NCBI RefSeq assembly: GCF_003019035.1
Contig: NZ_CP027447.1
Direction: 5' to 3' (one strand)
DNA length: 64,000 nt
DNA from: Escherichia coli
GTDB lineage: Bacteria > Pseudomonadota > Gammaproteobacteria > Enterobacterales > Enterobacteriaceae
The translations under genes were made by a program, and so were the position numbers. The notes beneath the pieces are model-generated. The model saw only the letters and a list, made by a program, of their open reading frames with translations, was not told the origin of the DNA and ran no database searches. Below are positions 15,867 through 24,363 of this stretch, piece after piece; the first letter of the stretch is position 1; each line of letters starts with the position of its first letter.

Positions 15867-16256
15867 ATGATTGACGCTCATGACTTCACAAGATGGGTGC
15901 GCACACAGGACACCCGTCTGGCTCCCGTTCTTCAGGGATTATTTGATCTCTACATCCGTGGTCGTGACAACAGAGCACGCACCACAAAACCAGAGAATGC
16001 AGACACCCTTTATTTCACAGTAGACGACTGCTACCGCGTGGACTTCACACCACACGGGCTGGCGTTGCACTGCCTGACACCACACGGCGAATCACTACTG
16101 GCTTATTACGACTCCCCGGCCTCCGTATTTGCGGCAATGCTGGCGCATCGCACTGCTGGCGGGTGTGCCTCGCTGAGTGAATACACCGCTGAATTTAACC
16201 GCCTTTCCACCCTCTTCTCGCAGGAGTGGCAGCGCGTGACGGGATACCAGCCATGA
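15867..16256 (+). CDS. Hypothetical protein (early region)
   Basis: 129-aa ORF, stop overlaps gpA start. Confidence 0.5.
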   Translation: MIDAHDFTRWVRTQDTRLAPVLQGLFDLYIRGRDNRARTTKPENADTLYFTVDDCYRVDFTPHGLALHCLTPHGESLLAYYDSPASVFAAMLAHRTAGGCASLSEYTAEFNRLSTLFSQEWQRVTGYQP

Positions 16257-19093
16257 GTGAGTTTGCATGGAGCTGGAATGAACCACGGCCAGCCATTGAT
16301 CCAGCCAGATTTACGGAGCACAGGCAGGAAACTGAAACCGACCTGCAACGCGCCATCCGTTACTACCTTGAGGCGGACAAAAGGGCACAGAAAGAACAGG
16401 AAGCAAAGGAAGAAGCCTTTTTCGCACAATCCGCCATGGGTAAAAAACTCATGGCATCCCATGAGGAAGCCGGACAGCGTGAAAAGCTGGCACAGAGCAT
16501 CATCAGTAAGCGCCGGGCAACAGAACAAGACCCGGTAGCCCGTGCCTTTGCCACACTGAAGGCGCTTCCCGTTTATCTGCGAGAACCTCTGAGCCGCCAC
16601 CTCTCTTTCCTGCGCAAGAAGCAGGAAGCCGATCGTCAGAAAGGCAAAAAGAGCTGGCAGGCGGAACGCTATGCACGCGGAACCCTGCGCAAAATATTCG
16701 AACGTCTGGACCGCACCGACAGCCGCTGGCTGACACCGGGTTATCGCTCTCTTGCCGGACGCGAACGCCTGGACGATTTGCTTTACCTGCCGCAGCTCAA
16801 CAAACACCAGATACAGACGCTGGCCACCATGACGGCGGCGATGTTCAGCAGCACCTTCGAAAAACTCTGCGATGGCTTTGGCGCGACTGATGGCGAACTG
16901 ACCATGGATGTAACGCTGAAGGCGTATCAGATGCTGGCCCGCATGGCGTTACACCTGCACATCATGCCTCCACATTATGACGCACTGACAACAGATAAAG
17001 ACCGGAGGAACGAACCGGACACGGAGCTGCTGCCGGGCGCAATCCTTCGCCTGACCTGTGCGGAATGGTGGAAACGCAAACTGTGGCTGTTACGTTGCGA
17101 GTGGAGAGAAGAACAACTCCGCGCCGCCTGTCTGGTTTCCAGAAAAACATCACCCTATCTGAGCCAGGACGCGTTAAGCGAGTTTCGCGCACAGCGCGAG
17201 AAAACACGCGATTTCCTGAAAAGTTTCATGCTGGAAAATGAAGACGGGTTCACGATTGATCTCGAGACGGTGTATTACGCGGGAGTAAGTAACCCGGTTC
17301 ACCGTAAGGCAGAAATGATGGCCACCATGAAGGGACTGGAACTTCTGGCCGAAGCCCGTGGCGACAGAGCGGTGTTTCTGACTGTCACCTGCCCGTCAAA
17401 ATACCACGCAACAACGGAGAACGGTCATCCGAACCCCAAATGGAACGGGGCCACCATGCGCGACTCCAGCGATTACCTGGTTAACACGTTTTTTGCGGCG
17501 GTCCGCAAAAAACTGAACCGCGACGGCCTGCGCTGGTATGGCATCCGCACGGTGGAGCCTCACCATGACGGCACCGTGCACTGGCACATGATGGTCTTTG
17601 CTCATCCAGAAGAAATCGACAGCATCGTGGCCATCACCCGCGATATTGCCATTCAGGAAGACCGCCACGAGCTGGGCAATGATATTACTCCGCGCTTTAA
17701 GGTGGAGTATGTCGACGGCTCAAAAGGCACACCAACCAGCTACATCGCCACCTACATCGGAAAGAACCTGGACAGCCGCGCCGTGGATGGCATCGACCCG
17801 AAAACGGGCAAGCCACGCGTTGACCACGAAACCGGAAAATCAATGGCCGAGAGCGTGGAACGCGCCATCGGCTGGGCGCGCCTTCACCGGGTCCGCCAGT
17901 TCCAGTTCTTTGGTATCCCCTCCCGTCAGGTGTGGCGTGAACTGCGCCGCCTTGCCAGCCAGATGGCACGCAACCCGGAAGGCCCGCAACGGCTGAAGGA
18001 TGACGCAATGGACGCGGTACTCGCTGCCGCTGATGCCGGATGTTTTGCCACCTACATTGAGAAACAGGGTGGCGTACTTGTTCCACGCAAAGACTACCTG
18101 ATTCGCACCGCCTACGACCTCGCAGATGAGCTGAACGATTACGGCGAGCAGAGTGTACAGATTTACGGGATCTGGTCGCCGCTCATCGGGGAGTCTTCCC
18201 GCGTGTGCACGCACCCGGATAACTGGAAGCTGGTAAGACGTAAACCGGAAGCGGAAGACAGCGCCCGCGAAAATGGTTTTGACCTTCAGGGCGGCCCTGC
18301 CGCCCCTTGGACTCGTGGCAATAACTGTCCCCGTGTACAGGAAACGGACAACAACGGGACAGAACAGCCGGAAGAACGGCCAGCACCGTGGCCGCAGCTC
18401 CCTGACGGCGTTGAAGTGAACGAATGGATGCGCTCACTGAAACGGCACGAACGCCGGGCGCTGATGCGTTCGCTTCGTGACAAACAGGCAAAAAACAGCA
18501 GTGATGAAATGCAGAGCTGGACACAGAGCCGCAAACAGCAGCGGCCTTTGCCTGATAACCACGAATTACTCGCTAAAGAATGGCGGGAGTCTGCTGAATC
18601 TCTCGGCCTGCATATCGGTGAACAGCAGATGCAGCACCTGTTACGGGGCGGCAGTCTGTACGTTGACGGCAGCATCATTGCACCGCAGGGATTTGAAATT
18701 GTACGCAAACCGGATACCCGACCGGACAGCCGGATCACGCAGCTCTGGCAGCGCCTGAGCCGTAACCACGGCGTAAGCAGCACGGAGATCCGCCATAACC
18801 CGGTCGCCAGCTATCTGGAACAGCTGGCGGCATCAGACCCCGAAGCCGCCGCACGCCTGGCATCCACACTTCAGCAAGACCAGAACACCATGAAAACACC
18901 CGTTACCGTGCTTTCTGACATGCTGCGCGCCATCCGCGACGCAGAGCACGCACAGAGAATCAGTGAAACCACTGAACGCGCCCGCCGCAAAGCAGACCTG
19001 CTGCGGGGTGGCCTGACCATTGGAAACAAAAAACAGACAGAAACGGGATTCACAAATCCCGTAAATGAGCAAAAAACGCGCCGCGATATATGA
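16253..19093 (+). CDS. Replication initiation endonuclease (P2 gpA-like rolling-circle initiator)
   Basis: 946 aa from MSEFAWSW; conserved HHDGTVHWHMMVF region of the phage replication endonuclease family; longer than P2 gpA (C-terminal extension). Confidence 0.85.
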   Translation: MSEFAWSWNEPRPAIDPARFTEHRQETETDLQRAIRYYLEADKRAQKEQEAKEEAFFAQSAMGKKLMASHEEAGQREKLAQSIISKRRATEQDPVARAFATLKALPVYLREPLSRHLSFLRKKQEADRQKGKKSWQAERYARGTLRKIFERLDRTDSRWLTPGYRSLAGRERLDDLLYLPQLNKHQIQTLATMTAAMFSSTFEKLCDGFGATDGELTMDVTLKAYQMLARMALHLHIMPPHYDALTTDKDRRNEPDTELLPGAILRLTCAEWWKRKLWLLRCEWREEQLRAACLVSRKTSPYLSQDALSEFRAQREKTRDFLKSFMLENEDGFTIDLETVYYAGVSNPVHRKAEMMATMKGLELLAEARGDRAVFLTVTCPSKYHATTENGHPNPKWNGATMRDSSDYLVNTFFAAVRKKLNRDGLRWYGIRTVEPHHDGTVHWHMMVFAHPEEIDSIVAITRDIAIQEDRHELGNDITPRFKVEYVDGSKGTPTSYIATYIGKNLDSRAVDGIDPKTGKPRVDHETGKSMAESVERAIGWARLHRVRQFQFFGIPSRQVWRELRRLASQMARNPEGPQRLKDDAMDAVLAAADAGCFATYIEKQGGVLVPRKDYLIRTAYDLADELNDYGEQSVQIYGIWSPLIGESSRVCTHPDNWKLVRRKPEAEDSARENGFDLQGGPAAPWTRGNNCPRVQETDNNGTEQPEERPAPWPQLPDGVEVNEWMRSLKRHERRALMRSLRDKQAKNSSDEMQSWTQSRKQQRPLPDNHELLAKEWRESAESLGLHIGEQQMQHLLRGGSLYVDGSIIAPQGFEIVRKPDTRPDSRITQLWQRLSRNHGVSSTEIRHNPVASYLEQLAASDPEAAARLASTLQQDQNTMKTPVTVLSDMLRAIRDAEHAQRISETTERARRKADLLRGGLTIGNKKQTETGFTNPVNEQKTRRDI

Positions 19094-19169: not shown

Positions 19170-20129
19170 ATGAAAATTTGTATCGATGACGGCTCCACCA
19201 ACATCAAGCTGGCATGGACTGAGAACGGCGAACGCCGCAACGCCATCAGCCCGAACAGCTTCAAGTCGGAATGGTCTGCGCCGTTCGGTGGCACGCAGCC
19301 CGCGAACTACATGCTTGATGGCGTGCGCTATGGTTTTGATCCGGTCAGCGATCGCTTTGTCCAGACGACCGACACGCAATACCAGTACAGCGATGTGAAT
19401 GTCATTGCCATTCATCACGCGCTGGTCAAATCAGGCATCACACCACAGGAAGTGGATGTGGTTGTCACCCTGCCACTGAGCGAATATTTCGACACAAACG
19501 CACAGCCGGACATGGCCAACATCAACCGCAAAAAAGCAAACGTCATGCGCCCGGTGGCGTACCAGAACGGAAAAGCATTCACTATCCGTAACGTACGGGT
19601 TATGCCTGAATCCATTCCGGCTGGTTTTAAAGCACTGGCTGACATGAGTCCGTTTGAATCCCTGCTGATTGTGGATTTAGGCGGAACCACGCTGGATGTG
19701 GCAAAGGTTCAGGGACAACTGGCAGGTATCAGCCAGGTGTTTTGCGATCCACACGTAGGCGTTTCCCTGATGGCCGATGCCGTACTGTCGGTGATGGCCA
19801 CTAACGGTATGCGCACCAGTCACCACATCGCCAATACCATTATCGAACATCGCCATGATGAAGCCTGGCTGCGCCAGCACATCCACAATGACGCGCATTA
19901 CGCCAGCCTGATGGCGGTTATTCGTGAAAAGGAAGAAACACTGAAACAACGCGTGATCCGCGCGCTGGCGGTTTTTTCGGGTTACGGGCGGGTGATGGTT
20001 GTCGGTGGCGGGGCGGAGATTGTGGCACCCGCTATCCGCGAAGCCTGCGGAGTTAATGCGACTTTCATCGCGGACGGGGTGCCACAATTTGCTCTGGTTA
20101 ATGGGCTGTACGCAATGAACAAGGAGTAA
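19170..20129 (+). CDS. ParM/StbA-family actin-like segregation ATPase
   Basis: 319 aa; IDDGSTNIKL, ISPNSFK, YSDVNV.A.HHAL, VMPESIPAG, LIVDLGGTTLD, VMVVGGGAE closely parallel plasmid R1 ParM. Confidence 0.85.
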   Translation: MKICIDDGSTNIKLAWTENGERRNAISPNSFKSEWSAPFGGTQPANYMLDGVRYGFDPVSDRFVQTTDTQYQYSDVNVIAIHHALVKSGITPQEVDVVVTLPLSEYFDTNAQPDMANINRKKANVMRPVAYQNGKAFTIRNVRVMPESIPAGFKALADMSPFESLLIVDLGGTTLDVAKVQGQLAGISQVFCDPHVGVSLMADAVLSVMATNGMRTSHHIANTIIEHRHDEAWLRQHIHNDAHYASLMAVIREKEETLKQRVIRALAVFSGYGRVMVVGGGAEIVAPAIREACGVNATFIADGVPQFALVNGLYAMNKE

Positions 20130-20133
20130 ACCA

Positions 20134-20445
20134 ATGACGACACCAACCAGAAGAATAAGTTTCTATCTGAAGCCAGCTGCCGTCAAGAACGAAGGAGAAG
20201 CATGCGCCTGGCTGGACAGTCTTACACCAGAAGCCCGCAAAAGCGGCCAACGCGTGGCTTTTCTGGCCGGGCTGGCACTTCTGAAGACGAATCCGGCAGA
20301 GGCTTACCGACTGGCCGCATGGGCTGATGATGAGATGTTACCTGTGACACAAATCAGCTCAAAAAAGTTTGAAGCACAGTCTGCACCAGTGGCTAAGATA
20401 ACCAGCCAGATGGCTGGGAATATCCGGGCGTTATTTCCTGAGTAA
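20134..20445 (+). CDS. ParR/StbB-like small DNA-binding adaptor
   Basis: 103 aa directly downstream of the ParM-like gene; ISFYLKP and LDSLTPEARKSGQRVAFLAGLAL parallel R1 ParR N-terminus. Confidence 0.7.
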   Translation: MTTPTRRISFYLKPAAVKNEGEACAWLDSLTPEARKSGQRVAFLAGLALLKTNPAEAYRLAAWADDEMLPVTQISSKKFEAQSAPVAKITSQMAGNIRALFPE

Positions 20446-20573
20446 AAGCATCTGCGCGAAAAATGCTCACGTTTATAGAGACAGTATCATTCCATTTGGC
20501 ACACTTACTTCAATAATCGATCTGTTAAACAAATAGATTGTCTATTATCTATCGATTAAAACGATCAATTATC

Positions 20574-20601
20574 TTGACAGTAATGTGCCTTTTTGTAAGA
20601 T
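20574..20601 (+). promoter_or_regulatory. Sigma70-like promoter (TTGACA-16-TAAGAT) with GATC overlapping the -10
   Basis: near-consensus -35/-10; three GATC sites at 20519, 20563 and 20599. Confidence 0.45.
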
Positions 20602-20707
20602 CGTTCGCATTGTGAGCGACAAGATAATTGCGCGGCATTGTCCATGCAAAACGCCCCAATAGCAGCAACTATTGGGGCGTAAAACTCGGTCGGACTCACT
20701 TAACCTG

Positions 20708-20793
20708 ATATGCGTGCCTTCCGAAGTAAATCAAAATGTGCGTCGTATATTTTATTGCTTACACGCACCTCTGTAAAGGCACGCATATTTTTC
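20708..20793 (+). terminator. Long hairpin (13-bp perfect stem, nested 6-bp inner stem) followed by T-run; attenuator or terminator
   Basis: ATATGCGTGCCTT (20708-20720) pairs with AAGGCACGCATAT (20776-20788), then TTTTT; lies between the promoter and the GTG start at 20810. Confidence 0.4.
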
Positions 20794-20809
20794 CTATGAG
20801 GTAAATAAA

Positions 20810-21079
20810 GTGCGGGCTAAAACAGGTATTTGCAAGAACCCTCATCGTTATAATCCAACATTTCTGTCTCTCCCTGAATATCAAGGACAAGAAGGTCGGC
20901 ACAAATGCGCTGCCTGTGCTTTTGAGCTAGGCATAAAAGATGCGCTTGAAGGACGCGCTATGGCTCAGAATGATTTAGTTTTAGCTAACATTCCGTTTAG
21001 CCAGGCTGGAACTGTAAGGCACAGAGATGCCTATGAAGCATATGTTCGTGGTTGGCGATTAATACACAGCAACAATTGA
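20810..21079 (+). CDS. Hypothetical 89-aa Cys/His-containing protein (prophage cargo)
   Basis: GTG start with GAGG 8 nt upstream; CKNPHRY...HKCAACAF suggests metal binding; followed by a clean intrinsic terminator. Confidence 0.5.
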   Translation: MRAKTGICKNPHRYNPTFLSLPEYQGQEGRHKCAACAFELGIKDALEGRAMAQNDLVLANIPFSQAGTVRHRDAYEAYVRGWRLIHSNN

Positions 21080-21087
21080 TACTTTTG

Positions 21088-21112
21088 AAGCGCCGATAAG
21101 GCGCTTTTTTTG
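21088..21112 (+). terminator. Rho-independent terminator
   Basis: AAGCGCC-loop-GGCGCTT stem followed by TTTTTTT directly after stop at 21079. Confidence 0.6.
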
Positions 21113-21565
21113 TTTGCACGATAGTGCACAAGTTTGCACAATTTTTTTGAACGACTTTTTGTACTTCCGGCCCGCGTGGTGGCTGGATCCGTCAAGGATC
21201 CGTACGTGCACAAAAATACGCGTTTTTTCTGCGCGCAGGTGACGGGGGAACAGCCCGCGTTTCAGGGGGTAAATAGCATTCCCTTAACGATGTCGCAGCG
21301 ACATGACAGAATGGCCGTATTTCTCACGCTGAGCGTGAAAAATACGTGAGGGATTCTGCTTTGATGGGGTGAAAGGTAAGGCCGTCAAAATCGCACTGAG
21401 GCGGCGAGAACATGCAGTCAGCGCAGTGGGATTGCGTAAGAGTCTGACCGTCGATGATGGCAATAAGCAGGAAAGCGTCGTGAAATTATCTGACTGATAC
21501 AGGAGCTGGAGAGTCGGGGCATAAATTTTTTATGCCCCGGCGAAGCAGCAGACAAGCGAAGCGCG

Positions 21566-22612
21566 TCAGGATGTGGGCTGGGTATCTAACAGTGCGTAAG
21601 GGTTAAAGCGGATCACCTCTTCGCCAAGCCAGTCATTGATGTGCTTCATGGCCTCCATGACGGGCATCAGCTCGTTAATTGCGTAAACCCGCGCGGCCTT
21701 CTCCACATCACCAAACGCACTTTTTTCGCCCGGCATCGCCCCCATCAGTTGCGGCGGAACGCGGTGCGCAGCCAGCACATCATCACGGGATGCCGCCTTA
21801 ACATTCATGAACTCATCTTTTGCGGTGATCTGCTGGAACGGCAAAATTTGCACCCCCTCTTTGCCCCCGTTGGGCGCATGAATGAGCACGTTTTTAAACG
21901 CACCACCACCACGTGCCCCCTGTAGCGTTTCTTTCAGGGAGTCCATGCTTTCGCGGTTTACCTGCGCTGCACCGATGTAGATGATGCACCCGGCGTGGGA
22001 TCCGTTGTCGTAGTACAGTTTTCTGAACATGTCCGCTGAATGAGAAAGGCTGGCCGAGAGTAATGCGCCAAGATATTCCGGCATGCCGTAGATTTCCTGG
22101 TTAATATCCGGATTCATCAGGTGGCACACTTTGCCAGGACGAAACTGGAACGCGTCCTTGCCATCCTGCACATACCACCATGATTCAAGATCGCTTCCGC
22201 GTCGCATGTATTTCGCCAGGGCGTGCCGTAATTTAAGCGGTTCGCCGAGCATATTGCTTCGAAGCTCAAGGAATGCGTTACCGAACACAAACCAGTCCAG
22301 CGCCAGCGCCGAGAAATCCTGCCGGGAAAGCAGCGGGTGCGGGATGTAGCAACCGAGTAATACATTGCGCTTAAAGTAAAGCGCAGACTGATGCCAGGAC
22401 GTTTGCCGGGCAGCTCTTGCCAGACCGTACCAGTCCACCGGGGTTTCATACCACCGCCCGTTATCAGCACAGTACATATTGTCCAGCAGGTCATGCCCGG
22501 TCAGGCGATAAGGACCATCAAATGTGAATGCACTGAGCGATGATTCTTTCCTGAGCGCATCAGCGAGATCAATGCGTGAACTCATGCGCACTTTTTTATT
22601 TTTTCTGCTCAT
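21566..22612 (-). CDS. Portal protein (P2 gpQ-like)
   Basis: 348 aa; position and size as P2 Q, co-oriented and coupled with terminase gene. Confidence 0.9.
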   Translation of the reverse strand: MSRKNKKVRMSSRIDLADALRKESSLSAFTFDGPYRLTGHDLLDNMYCADNGRWYETPVDWYGLARAARQTSWHQSALYFKRNVLLGCYIPHPLLSRQDFSALALDWFVFGNAFLELRSNMLGEPLKLRHALAKYMRRGSDLESWWYVQDGKDAFQFRPGKVCHLMNPDINQEIYGMPEYLGALLSASLSHSADMFRKLYYDNGSHAGCIIYIGAAQVNRESMDSLKETLQGARGGGAFKNVLIHAPNGGKEGVQILPFQQITAKDEFMNVKAASRDDVLAAHRVPPQLMGAMPGEKSAFGDVEKAARVYAINELMPVMEAMKHINDWLGEEVIRFNPYALLDTQPTS

Positions 22613-24363
22613 CAGAACTCCATAACCGTGAAACGCTCGTTTTCTCCTTCGCCGCCAATCGGTTCGTTAATGACAGCAAGCATGGTTGCCCACGCAAGGT
22701 CGCCGTGGCTGATCCCCCTCGCTCGGTCCGTTTCGTAAGTGATAAAGCCGCCCGGTGTTTTCACCTTACGCACGGCGTTAAAGGCCGCGACCAGCTCGCG
22801 TTCGGCGCGATCGTATTCCCACCGCCCGGCACGCATTATTTGCAGCATTTTCAGTACCAGCGACCGTTTTGATGACAGCGTGAAGGTGTACGGAATAGCA
22901 GCAGGGAAAAACCGCTTCACTATCTGATAAACAGCCTCCCCGTTCCCGCCCGTCACATCAATGCCGATGTGTTCCACGTTGTAGCGATACGTGAACTCTT
23001 CAATGACTCTGGCCTGTTCTTCAAACTCCAGCCCCTGAACGCGTCGCGTCTCCACCGTTCGAAAACGGCCACCAGGAACAGCCGGAGGAACCACCACGGA
23101 CACAGCGCCGCTGTCGCCGTTGCCACTACTGCCGTTTGCGTCATACCCAATCCATACCGGACGATTCCCCATCGGGCGGGGAGCAAAAGGTTTCCAGTCT
23201 TTCCAGTCGTCGTATCCGTCAACACCACAGCCAATCAGGATATTCAGGTTAAATGCCGATTCCCCTTCGCGGACAAACTCACACATATAGAGATTGAGGA
23301 ACTCGTCTTCGGTGTTTTCATCACGAATTTCATCAATATCGGTGTGTTTCCAGCCGTGATTAACCACATCTTCCAGCGTGACAATTTGCCGCCACGTCCG
23401 GTCAGGGCAGATAAGCCCGTTATGCAGCGTTTTCCAGTCCACAGAAAAACGCTGGCGTTTATGCGTGGCCTTTTTCTCGTTCCAGCGGTCGCCGTTCCAG
23501 TAGGCGTATGCCTCGTGCGTTTCGGTGGATGGCGTGGAGAAGTAGGTGCGCCGCAGTCCGCTGAGGGTTGCCATAGCGCCAGCCACCTTGCGCAGTTCAG
23601 CAAAGCGACTGACCCAGAAAAATTCATCAAAATAAAAATTGCCCGTATAGGACTGTGCCGACGCAGCAGAAGTGCCGAGAAAATGCAGCTCTGCGCCGTT
23701 GGAGAGGATGATTTTATCACCCCCTTTCAGCTCCACATCAACTTCAGCCGCGGCCTTCTGAATAATGCTTTTAAACTGGAACGCCTGACGACGCGACGCA
23801 GACAAAAAAATCTGGTTACGCTGGTAAGGTTGCGCCACATCGTCACGCAGCGCCATCAGCAGCGCTTCCTGTGCAAAATACCAGGTCGCCCCAATCTGTC
23901 GGGATTTCAGGATCATCCTGTTACGTATCCCGGCTTCCCTGCAAAGGGTCAGGGAGTCAAACCAGCCCCGCTGATGCCACTCCAGCCTGCTGATGATTTT
24001 TTCCCGCAGTGCGGCAATCTGTTCCGGCGTGAAATGATTTTTGAGTTTTTTCGCCCGGCCTTTCTTTCCTGCGGCCATCACATCCGGCTGGCCATCATGC
24101 AGCTTTTTAAGCTGCCGGGTCAGCAGGTCTATTTCCTTAAAGTCACCGCCTGTTTTATTCTGTTTTTCAGTAAGCTGGATGAGGCGCGCATCGATGGACT
24201 GCGTGACACGCTGCACGGGTGGCGTTTCATCCCACTGGTCACGTTTTTTCCACGCATAAATCGTGTTCGGGTTTATTCCCATCAGACGTGATATTTCTGC
24301 GGGCGGATAACCCTGCCAGTAAAGTTGCCGCGCACGCTGGCGCACAAAAGCGTCCTGAATCAT
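22612..24363 (-). CDS. Terminase large (ATPase) subunit (P2 gpP-like)
   Basis: 583 aa; P-Q leftward operon divergent from capsid operon as in P2. Confidence 0.9.
   Translation of the reverse strand: MIQDAFVRQRARQLYWQGYPPAEISRLMGINPNTIYAWKKRDQWDETPPVQRVTQSIDARLIQLTEKQNKTGGDFKEIDLLTRQLKKLHDGQPDVMAAGKKGRAKKLKNHFTPEQIAALREKIISRLEWHQRGWFDSLTLCREAGIRNRMILKSRQIGATWYFAQEALLMALRDDVAQPYQRNQIFLSASRRQAFQFKSIIQKAAAEVDVELKGGDKIILSNGAELHFLGTSAASAQSYTGNFYFDEFFWVSRFAELRKVAGAMATLSGLRRTYFSTPSTETHEAYAYWNGDRWNEKKATHKRQRFSVDWKTLHNGLICPDRTWRQIVTLEDVVNHGWKHTDIDEIRDENTEDEFLNLYMCEFVREGESAFNLNILIGCGVDGYDDWKDWKPFAPRPMGNRPVWIGYDANGSSGNGDSGAVSVVVPPAVPGGRFRTVETRRVQGLEFEEQARVIEEFTYRYNVEHIGIDVTGGNGEAVYQIVKRFFPAAIPYTFTLSSKRSLVLKMLQIMRAGRWEYDRAERELVAAFNAVRKVKTPGGFITYETDRARGISHGDLAWATMLAVINEPIGGEGENERFTVMEF

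Follow-up and report, generated by a model that had tools for sequence, protein, structure and literature searches.

What is the role of an 89-residue protein encoded in the cargo site of a P2-like prophage? The stretch of DNA that we analysed (the window) is 64,000 nucleotides of Escherichia coli contig NZ_CP027447.1 (RefSeq assembly GCF_003019035.1), and the gene in question is an open reading frame (ORF) on its plus strand at 20810-21079. An identical ORF is recorded in RefSeq as WP_001594304.1, a 'hypothetical protein' of E. coli O157:H7. Its sequence and its relatives mark the gene as an orphan copy of a probable zinc domain, so far undescribed, that is tied to GATC/Dam restriction-modification, and it appears to be under conserved antisense control.

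A widespread family with an internal repeat

The protein matches PHROG 3941, a family of unknown function, with its residues 4-89 aligned to positions 1-86 of the 86-position profile (E = 6.3e-49). An exhaustive HMMER search gave 172 representative relatives at E <= 1e-3, and the exact protein sequence occurs on at least 1000 contigs, which together indicate that the gene is more than a chance ORF.

The family alignment shows an internal duplication, two repeats of C-x3-H…SQxGxxRH-x-C-x2-C. Repeat 1 spans approximately residues 8-46 (C8-x3-H12 ... L-P-x-x-Q25-G-x-x-G-R30-H31-K-C33-x-x-C36-A-Y/F). Repeat 2, at approximately residues 55-89, retains S64-Q65-A-G-x-V-R70-H71 and has lost the cysteines. 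Across 55 family sequences, conservation is complete or at least 90% at C8, H12, Q25, R30, H31, C33, C36, S64, Q65, R70 and H71. The CxxxH...HxCxxC pattern that a preliminary description had read from this one sequence is therefore a property of the family, since each position of C8-x3-H12 ... H31-x-C33-x2-C36 is at least 90% conserved in these members. Given this conservation and the loss of the cysteines from repeat 2, C8, H12, C33 and C36 are the likely zinc ligands. The Arg-His pairs are likely to be functional residues because they are kept even in the repeat that has no cysteines. The AlphaFold model, a confident one (pLDDT 91.4), is a compact helical domain with a predicted zinc site, and the protein is soluble and basic, with 12 Lys/Arg and 8 Asp/Glu by residue count.

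Searches with the 89-aa protein gave no match in NCBIfam or PADLOC (E <= 1), only a chance match in Pfam, and no match among PDB sequences with either single-sequence or profile queries. The AlphaFold model had no structural neighbour among solved structures. Foldseek returned nothing from BFVD and solely uncharacterised family members from AFDB, and a word-indexed protein search found just two near-identical clusters. One family member bears the UniProt label 'HNH endonuclease'. The profile searches and structure prediction proposed in the preliminary description thus led to no characterised homologue, and its remark that the protein does not resemble Old, Tin or Tum holds, with PHROG 3941 as the sole PHROG match. 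The literature on PHROG 3941, PDC-S36, and DpnII with DUF3883 yielded no published description of a zinc two-repeat domain. The protein is a member of a widespread, undescribed family of small and probably zinc-binding proteins, and it belongs to no named family but PHROG 3941.

Linkage to GATC restriction-modification

Neighbouring genes were clustered for 80 genomic loci of stand-alone homologues. A Dam-family adenine methylase lies beside the homologue in 30 loci (TIGR00571, 284 bits against a cutoff of 115), R.DpnII in 20 (PF04556, E = 3e-106) and a DpnA/CcrM-like N6_N4 methylase in 19. The small gene is found inside such operons with gaps of 0-20 nt, for example in the order M.Dam, small gene, R.DpnII, M. 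Because DpnII-family enzymes act on GATC, as does MutH, a relative of which adjoins one of the longer homologues described below, these neighbours tie the family to Dam-type GATC methylation. The link to Dam/DpnII (GATC) restriction-modification is present across phyla.

The linkage splits along phyletic lines. When the count is confined to loci with 2.5 kb or more of flank, the gene is linked to restriction-modification at 23 of the 27 that lie outside the gamma-proteobacterial orders that we take to be Dam-positive (Enterobacterales, Orbales, Vibrionales and Alteromonadales), compared to 0 of 17 within those orders (Fisher p = 9e-9, computed over loci that are not phylogenetically independent). 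Plasmids follow the same split. A Lactiplantibacillus plasmid has an adenine methylase, a 429-aa protein and the homologue in that order, and orphan copies on Escherichia marmotae and Aeromonas plasmids lie amid toxin-antitoxin, TIR and macro-domain genes. No methylase is encoded in the cassette that holds the window gene (20446-21114), whereas homologues outside the Dam-positive orders have one. Linkage and split together suggest that, in genomic terms, the gene acts as a component dependent on a Dam-type methylase, whether this is encoded next to it or provided by the host. A component that harms unmethylated GATC DNA would be expected to show just such a dependence.

The DpnII-type operons of Bacteroidota, Firmicutes and Spirochaetes hold further uncharacterised accessory genes, labelled here c5, c13 and c8. 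These encode a 178-aa protein with a weak PDDEXK_11 match (c5; loci L039, L072, L078, L095, L120 and L122), a 185-aa protein that is also fused to the zinc module in P0067 (c13; L080, L103 and L112), and a 160-aa hydrophobic protein (c8; L057, L104, L112 and L117). Beside a Dam-family methylase and the zinc-module gene, R.DpnII is in some loci replaced by a 425-aa protein (L104, L107, L109-L111 and L212). This protein matches Pfam DUF6996/DUF6997 and PADLOC REase_II (E = 4e-151) and is probably another restriction enzyme family that serves the same methylase.

Fusions to nucleases

In longer relatives the repeat is doubled, both cysteine sets are intact, and the module forms the N-terminus of nucleases. 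Of the 57 longer relatives examined, the partner is NOV_C/DUF3883 in 25, HNH in 8-10 and HNH_2 in 5-7; where the partner is of the DGQHR/DndB type (3), WYL or HEPN, the module lies C-terminal of it. AFDB contains one GmrSD-N fusion of the module. The NOV_C fusions match the PADLOC candidate PDC-S36 (E = 1e-22 to 1e-50) through their C-terminal nuclease part only. Since the module is repeatedly fused to nuclease domains that have no other DNA-binding domain, its sequence relationships are most simply explained if it is the target-recognition domain of the fused nucleases.

Methylases accompany the fusions as well. A metagenome scan with the NOV_C fusions gave 84 doubled-module loci. The retrieved DNA contains a Dam-family or N6_N4 methylase at 50 of these, and where it extends 1 kb or more to each side (23 loci), such a methylase is adjacent in 19. 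The order M.Dam, module x2-NOV_C, R.DpnII, M is found at four doubled-module loci. One HNH_2 fusion adjoins a MutH-family gene, and one NOV_C fusion adjoins a MethyltransfD12 gene.

Orphan copies in enteric phages and plasmids

Enteric copies of the gene are orphan cargo of prophages and plasmids. The rexAB/bstA slot, downstream of the cI repressor, is where the gene lies in Rahnella and Gilliamella prophages and in a P22-like Salmonella phage. Lambdoid prophages carry it upstream of PL, in the cI/rex slot. In Providencia phages it has the Q antiterminator on one side and the lysis genes on the other, and it runs on the opposite strand, against late transcription. Other orphan copies lie in toxin-antitoxin islands; on conjugative plasmids the gene is found in accessory or toxin-antitoxin islands, outside the leading regions. 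Such positions suit accessory or defence genes that are expressed in the lysogen; they do not suit anti-restriction genes of the early-lytic or leading-region kind.

The enteric loci have no conserved protein partner, save for occasional adjacency to BstA in Gilliamella, where the homologue lies directly upstream of the BstA abortive-infection gene (L037 3096-4028, and L038; PADLOC E = 1e-118). The two genes may share a hotspot by chance, or they may be paired in function. In the P22-like Salmonella phage, the homologue fills the slot where BTP1 carries bstA.

Predicted antisense control of the orphan gene

The ORF is preceded by a leader of approximately 200 nt in which promoters are predicted on both strands. 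The features of the cassette are as follows, in window positions.

20446-21114, plus strand: whole cargo cassette (leader, ORF and terminator), 669 bp from the parR stop codon to conserved P2 DNA
20563-20566: GATC directly 5' of the -35 hexamer, invariant in 13/13 aligned leaders
20566-20576 and 20620-20630: perfect 11-bp inverted repeat, CAATTATCTTG / CAAGATAATTG, bracketing the sense promoter
20574-20601, plus strand: strong predicted sense promoter, TTGACA-16-TAAGAT, score 10 of 12, with a predicted start at ~20608, ~200 nt before the start codon
20599-20602: GATC overlapping the -10 hexamer (a third GATC is at 20519)
20608-20809, plus strand: long structured mRNA 5' leader, fold energy z = -3.9
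20645-20742, minus strand: predicted cis-antisense RNA of ~98 nt, complementary to the mRNA leader, fold energy z = -4.5
20680-20651, minus strand: GC-rich hairpin ending the antisense RNA, followed by UUUU
20708-20720 and 20776-20788: 13-bp long-range stem just before the Shine-Dalgarno sequence
20749-20777, minus strand: predicted antisense promoter, TTTACA-17-TAAAAT, with a predicted start at ~20742
20797-20800, plus strand: Shine-Dalgarno sequence GAGG, 9 nt before the GTG
20810-21079, plus strand: the ORF, 89 codons with a GTG start
21087-21112, plus strand: intrinsic terminator of the cassette, with a stem at 21087-21107 (8 pairs, 5 of them G-C) and then a T-run

An alignment of 13 leaders, the encoded proteins of which are only 50-62% identical, shows a common architecture despite diverged sequence. 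The hairpin and an A-rich tract are kept, and a GAGATCTC palindrome is often present at the antisense start. The antisense -35 (TGTAAAG on the plus strand) is invariant in 13/13 leaders and is followed 17 nt on by a TAnnnT -10, again in 13/13. Compensatory changes are found in 7 of the 9 hairpin pairs, and pairing is maintained in 85.5% of cells compared to 69% in shuffles, with the observed value reached by 0 of 500 shuffles. Wobble pairs amount to 20 cells when read as U-G on the minus strand, against 4 on the plus strand, an excess which indicates that it is the structure of the antisense transcript that is under selection. In a second enteric clade (Klebsiella, Enterobacter, Buttiauxella and Serratia; 45-49% identity), TTTACA-17/18-CACAAT or TACAAT is present in the same place, together with a canonical stem-plus-U6 terminator on the minus strand.

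From the conserved antisense promoter and the hairpin or terminator, a cis-antisense RNA running from ~20742 to 20645 is predicted. In its conserved minus-strand promoter and covarying hairpin, it is, in silico, an antisense RNA of the type I toxin-antitoxin kind, and by analogy the cassette is arranged like a type I toxin-antitoxin pair or like the sar/ant control of P22. Antisense control appears to be specific to orphans, since copies inside restriction-modification operons do not have this leader. The preliminary description had reported a stand-alone, tightly regulated gene with a GTG start, a Shine-Dalgarno sequence and its own terminator. These signals are all in place, and the regulation can now be specified as a predicted cis-antisense promoter and hairpin, both conserved.

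On the sense strand, an equivalent promoter is present in 11 of 15 scanned leaders of the closest clade, with its start 165-200 nt upstream of the start codon. A GATC lies in or just after the -10 in 8 of 13 related leaders, as read from the alignment, and GATC density is 8.2 per kb in the window's leader compared to 3.2 per kb in the window as a whole. One arm of the 11-bp inverted repeat overlaps the -35 and the other lies 13-23 nt past the predicted start, so the repeat is a possible operator; it is not obviously conserved in the other aligned leaders.

A conserved peptide from the leader or antisense strand (a 44-aa minus-strand ORF at 20565-20699) was considered and rejected, the pattern being one of base-pair covariation and not of coding. 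Rfam gave only sub-threshold matches to the bare hairpin within 20300-21700.

A proposed function and its alternatives

The reading that we favour, tentatively and without granting it quite an even chance, is that the protein is a zinc DNA-recognition module that reads unmethylated GATC, relies on host Dam for the mark of self, is limited by antisense RNA and brings about a restriction-like exclusion. Its two pseudo-symmetric repeats would each present a Ser/Gln loop and an Arg-His pair, and the module would read the palindrome GATC only when the adenines are unmethylated. Adenine is usually recognised by Gln, and guanine by Arg. We speculate that the Gln and Arg-His loops of the two repeats would suit the two half-sites of the palindrome, and that N6-methylation would break a Gln-adenine contact. 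Elsewhere, the doubled module would target NOV_C or HNH nucleases paired with Dam-family methylases, and single copies would serve as operon members of DpnII-type GATC systems. Dam is a housekeeping enzyme in enteric bacteria, and the temperate phages and plasmids of these bacteria could carry the module as an orphan, with the host's Dam supplying the self mark. In a Dam-positive host, the only targets of an orphan would be on un- or under-methylated DNA, which would result in restriction-like exclusion and would explain why its level is so tightly limited. The protein would occupy unmethylated GATC on incoming or over-replicating foreign DNA, which might be disabled by plain site occupancy or by a recruited nuclease such as the small PD-(D/E)xK-like c5 encoded beside some homologues. 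Overproduction of the protein, or a failure of Dam, would harm the host, and the cis-antisense RNA would limit expression, much as in type I toxin-antitoxin systems.

Several observations weigh against this proposal. The evidence for DNA binding is indirect, GATC specificity is deduced from gene neighbourhood, and some Dam-family methylases have other specificities. Shared ancestry confounds the phyletic split, and the four orders, Orbales above all, are only presumed to be Dam-positive. The 89-residue protein has no nuclease domain of its own with which to disable foreign DNA. Neither the promoters of the linked restriction-modification operons nor the second-clade leaders contain a GATC, and the GATCs at the cassette promoter may therefore reflect clade-specific regulation and not sites for the protein. 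Finally, the predicted antisense RNA does not overlap the ribosome-binding site.

A bolder version of the proposal, which we regard as doubtful, is that phages and plasmids possess a nuclease-free, restriction-like immunity module in which a new zinc fold reads unmethylated GATC, Dam defines self and a cis-antisense RNA provides restraint. If this were true, lysogens would discriminate against DNA from Dam-negative sources with no methylase or nuclease of their own, and phage DNA replicating faster than Dam can follow would also be excluded. The fold would then be a new portable GATC-recognition domain of a class of unrecognised restriction enzymes.

Alternatively, the protein may moderate restriction or enhance modification, either by occupying unmethylated GATC or by recruiting or stimulating a Dam-type methylase, so that methylation precedes cutting. 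As part of a DpnII operon it would serve establishment or safety, and in phages it would promote full Dam methylation or shielding of their own DNA, a function like that of lambda Ral or Rac Lar. The gene does lie between M and R in several operons, a Dam-type methylase always co-occurs with it, linked or host-supplied, and Rac Lar/RalR is a precedent for a small prophage protein under antisense RNA control. We nevertheless consider this unlikely, because the lambdoid cI/rex slot upstream of PL and the Providencia position against late transcription are not placed for lytic expression, the conjugative-plasmid copies lie in accessory or toxin-antitoxin islands and not in leading regions, and enteric hosts have no R partner to restrain. 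Moreover, the same module seems to target nucleases, which fits recognition rather than protection. An epigenetic, controller-like transcription regulator, which would bind operators, perhaps GATC-containing ones such as its own promoter, and switch with their methylation state, could account for the promoter GATCs of the closest clade (always one at the -35, often one at the -10), for the inverted repeat that brackets the window promoter, and for the fusions to WYL and DndB-type regulator domains. This is quite improbable given that GATC is missing from the linked operon promoters and second-clade leaders, that most fusion partners are nucleases, and that Pfam and structure searches revealed neither a helix-turn-helix nor a known regulator fold.

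The predicted cis-antisense RNA, which overlaps a long leader and has a conserved promoter and terminator hairpin, and the frequency of toxin-antitoxin genes among the neighbours would both be expected of a type I toxin of an addiction module. The target of such a toxin would be unrelated to GATC, and its restriction-modification neighbours would reflect shared residence in defence islands. However, a soluble, basic protein of 89 residues is unlike typical type I toxins, which are small, hydrophobic and membrane-active; the 0-20 nt gaps inside operons and the nuclease fusions exceed co-residence; and the split by Dam order is strong. A toxin of this type is accordingly very unlikely in our judgement. 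Least probable of all is a protein-binding adaptor, directed at a methylase or nuclease and not at DNA, or a minimal metal-dependent nickase acting through the Arg-His pairs. The invariance of these pairs even in the repeat without cysteines, the 'HNH endonuclease' label of one member in UniProt and the small PD-(D/E)xK-like genes (c5) that adjoin homologues would suit such a role, but Pfam gives no HNH match, the model resembles none of the many His-Me finger nucleases of solved structure, and a second nuclease would be redundant in a module already fused to a dedicated one.

Comparison with known systems

In function, the protein most resembles the recognition domains of modular restriction enzymes and, in regulation, SymE/SymR or RalR/RalA. 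Modular Type II and Type IV enzymes include DpnI, with its winged-helix domain, and ScoMcrA-type enzymes, in which SRA and sulfur-binding domains are fused to HNH. The fusion relatives are built alike, with a small N-terminal module, an HNH or PD-(D/E)xK (NOV_C) nuclease and a paired methylase. By analogy with these enzymes, it is natural to infer that the module recognises its target in a methylation-state-dependent manner. The NOV_C fusions match PDC-S36; in contrast, the window protein has no match to it (E <= 1) and no nuclease. It is likewise distinct from a type II restriction endonuclease, since Pfam, PADLOC, NCBIfam and structure searches revealed no nuclease domain and the cassette has no methylase, and from HNH or His-Me finger nucleases, as it has neither an HNH profile match nor a beta-beta-alpha-metal fold.

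SymE/SymR and RalR/RalA are non-membrane type I toxin-antitoxin pairs of E. coli. They resemble the window gene in combining a small soluble protein directed at nucleic acid with a cis or nearby antisense RNA in a restriction-modification or prophage setting. The window protein has no sequence or fold similarity to them, and its predicted antisense RNA covers part of the leader but leaves the ribosome-binding site free. Controller (C) proteins resemble it in that the small gene lies between M and R in many homologous operons. Unlike them, the window protein has no helix-turn-helix family in Pfam and no structural neighbour, and the operon promoters have no operator-like GATC or C-box. A controller binding GATC operators of restriction-modification operons is unsupported, as those promoters contain no GATC. 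SeqA, MutH and Sau3AI are readers of GATC methylation state, so the proposed ligand, GATC distinguished by adenine methylation, is alike, and one fusion relative adjoins a MutH-family gene; the window protein is not homologous to any of the three, and its own GATC specificity is suggested by its gene neighbourhood.

Anantharaman et al. 2013 (PMC3710099) described the N-terminal domain of DpnII/MboI, a module of approximately 100 residues that belongs to DpnII-type systems and is found joined to nucleases and to HEPN domains of the DUF4145 type. Identity with this domain was rejected, because the profile-profile comparison with R.DpnII gave a probability of 0.06%. A relationship to P2 Ogr was also rejected, since BLASTP gave no alignment to an Ogr sequence entered by hand and only PHROG 3941 matched. 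The anti-restriction proteins ArdA, Ocr, Ral, ArdB and KlcA show no similarity in PHROG, Pfam, PDB or BFVD, and the window protein does not have the acidic character of a DNA mimic. These comparisons bear on the roles suggested in the preliminary description. Nothing was found in favour of an antirepressor, and an anti-defence protein is not favoured either, because this one is basic and no DNA mimic, its slots are lysogen-expressed and its relatives are components of restriction-modification. A small defence effector stays plausible.

If our interpretation holds, the domain would be a DNA-recognition fold specific for the Dam site and a possible reader of GATC methylation. 'Hypothetical' families of Bacteroidota, Firmicutes and Spirochaetes would become restriction-modification components or restriction enzymes, and a cargo gene of approximately 3% of complete E. 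coli genomes and many Salmonella would gain a testable role. Mobile elements would be seen to exploit a host housekeeping methylase as the modification arm of immunity, and the cassette would be a rare type I-like module with a soluble, DNA-directed protein.

Cargo site and neighbouring genes

The cassette is flanked in the window by the following genes.

16226-19093: gene A (replication) of the P2-like prophage
19170-20129: parM-like gene, 319 aa, directly after gene A
20134-20445: parR-like gene, 103 aa
21566-22612, minus strand: portal gene
21566-24363, minus strand: portal and terminase genes

The site of the cassette is a variable cargo hotspot of P2-like phages. Similarity to E. coli genomes that have parMR and no cassette ends at 20445, and similarity to a parMR-only P2-like prophage (L210) picks up again at 21115. 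In L210 a DUF3800 gene occupies the slot that the cassette fills in the window. The cargo-gap position given in the preliminary description is thereby delimited, between parR and portal, with edges at 20446 and 21114. All 31 near-identical copies on viral contigs have the same P2-like context, and nearly all matches of a single-protein viral scan are identical P2-like copies. Of 5426 complete E. coli genomes, 1302 have parMR and only 165 have the ORF with its leader. The ORF is not part of the partition system, as parMR is eight times commoner without the cassette and the edges are sharp. The parMR count agrees with the published finding of a partition system at this hotspot in about a quarter of P2-like phages (Rousset et al., PMC9122126).

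There is no obvious parC centromere upstream of parM, where the gap is only 76 nt. The AT-rich stretch from the parR stop to the cassette promoter (20446-20560) contains ATCGAT/TCGATC-type motifs and the GATC at 20519, and could be a parC-like centromere or upstream promoter elements. In E. coli CH4793 (H34, NZ_CM166350.1), a 100%-identical copy of parM, parR and the cassette is broken by an IS1 element. Escherichia phage 503458 (H3/H4, NC_049341.1 24996-25169) has a truncated, unannotated copy that covers residues 9-66 at 86% identity; its record has two matching places for this copy, which is possibly a decayed cassette.

Just downstream of the portal stop, otherwise near-identical P2-like prophages (L005, L009, L012, L013, L015, L016, L018, L021, L028 and L030) have an extra insertion of ~635 bp relative to window positions 21569-21591, where the window does not have it. 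The conserved P2 DNA by the portal gene contains a 15-nt near-perfect hairpin (21316-21346). A second hairpin, at 21515-21539, lies in a region (21507-21560) with a sub-threshold match to the Rfam 'gyrA RNA' (22 bits compared to a gathering score of 45) and is probably the terminator region of the portal operon.

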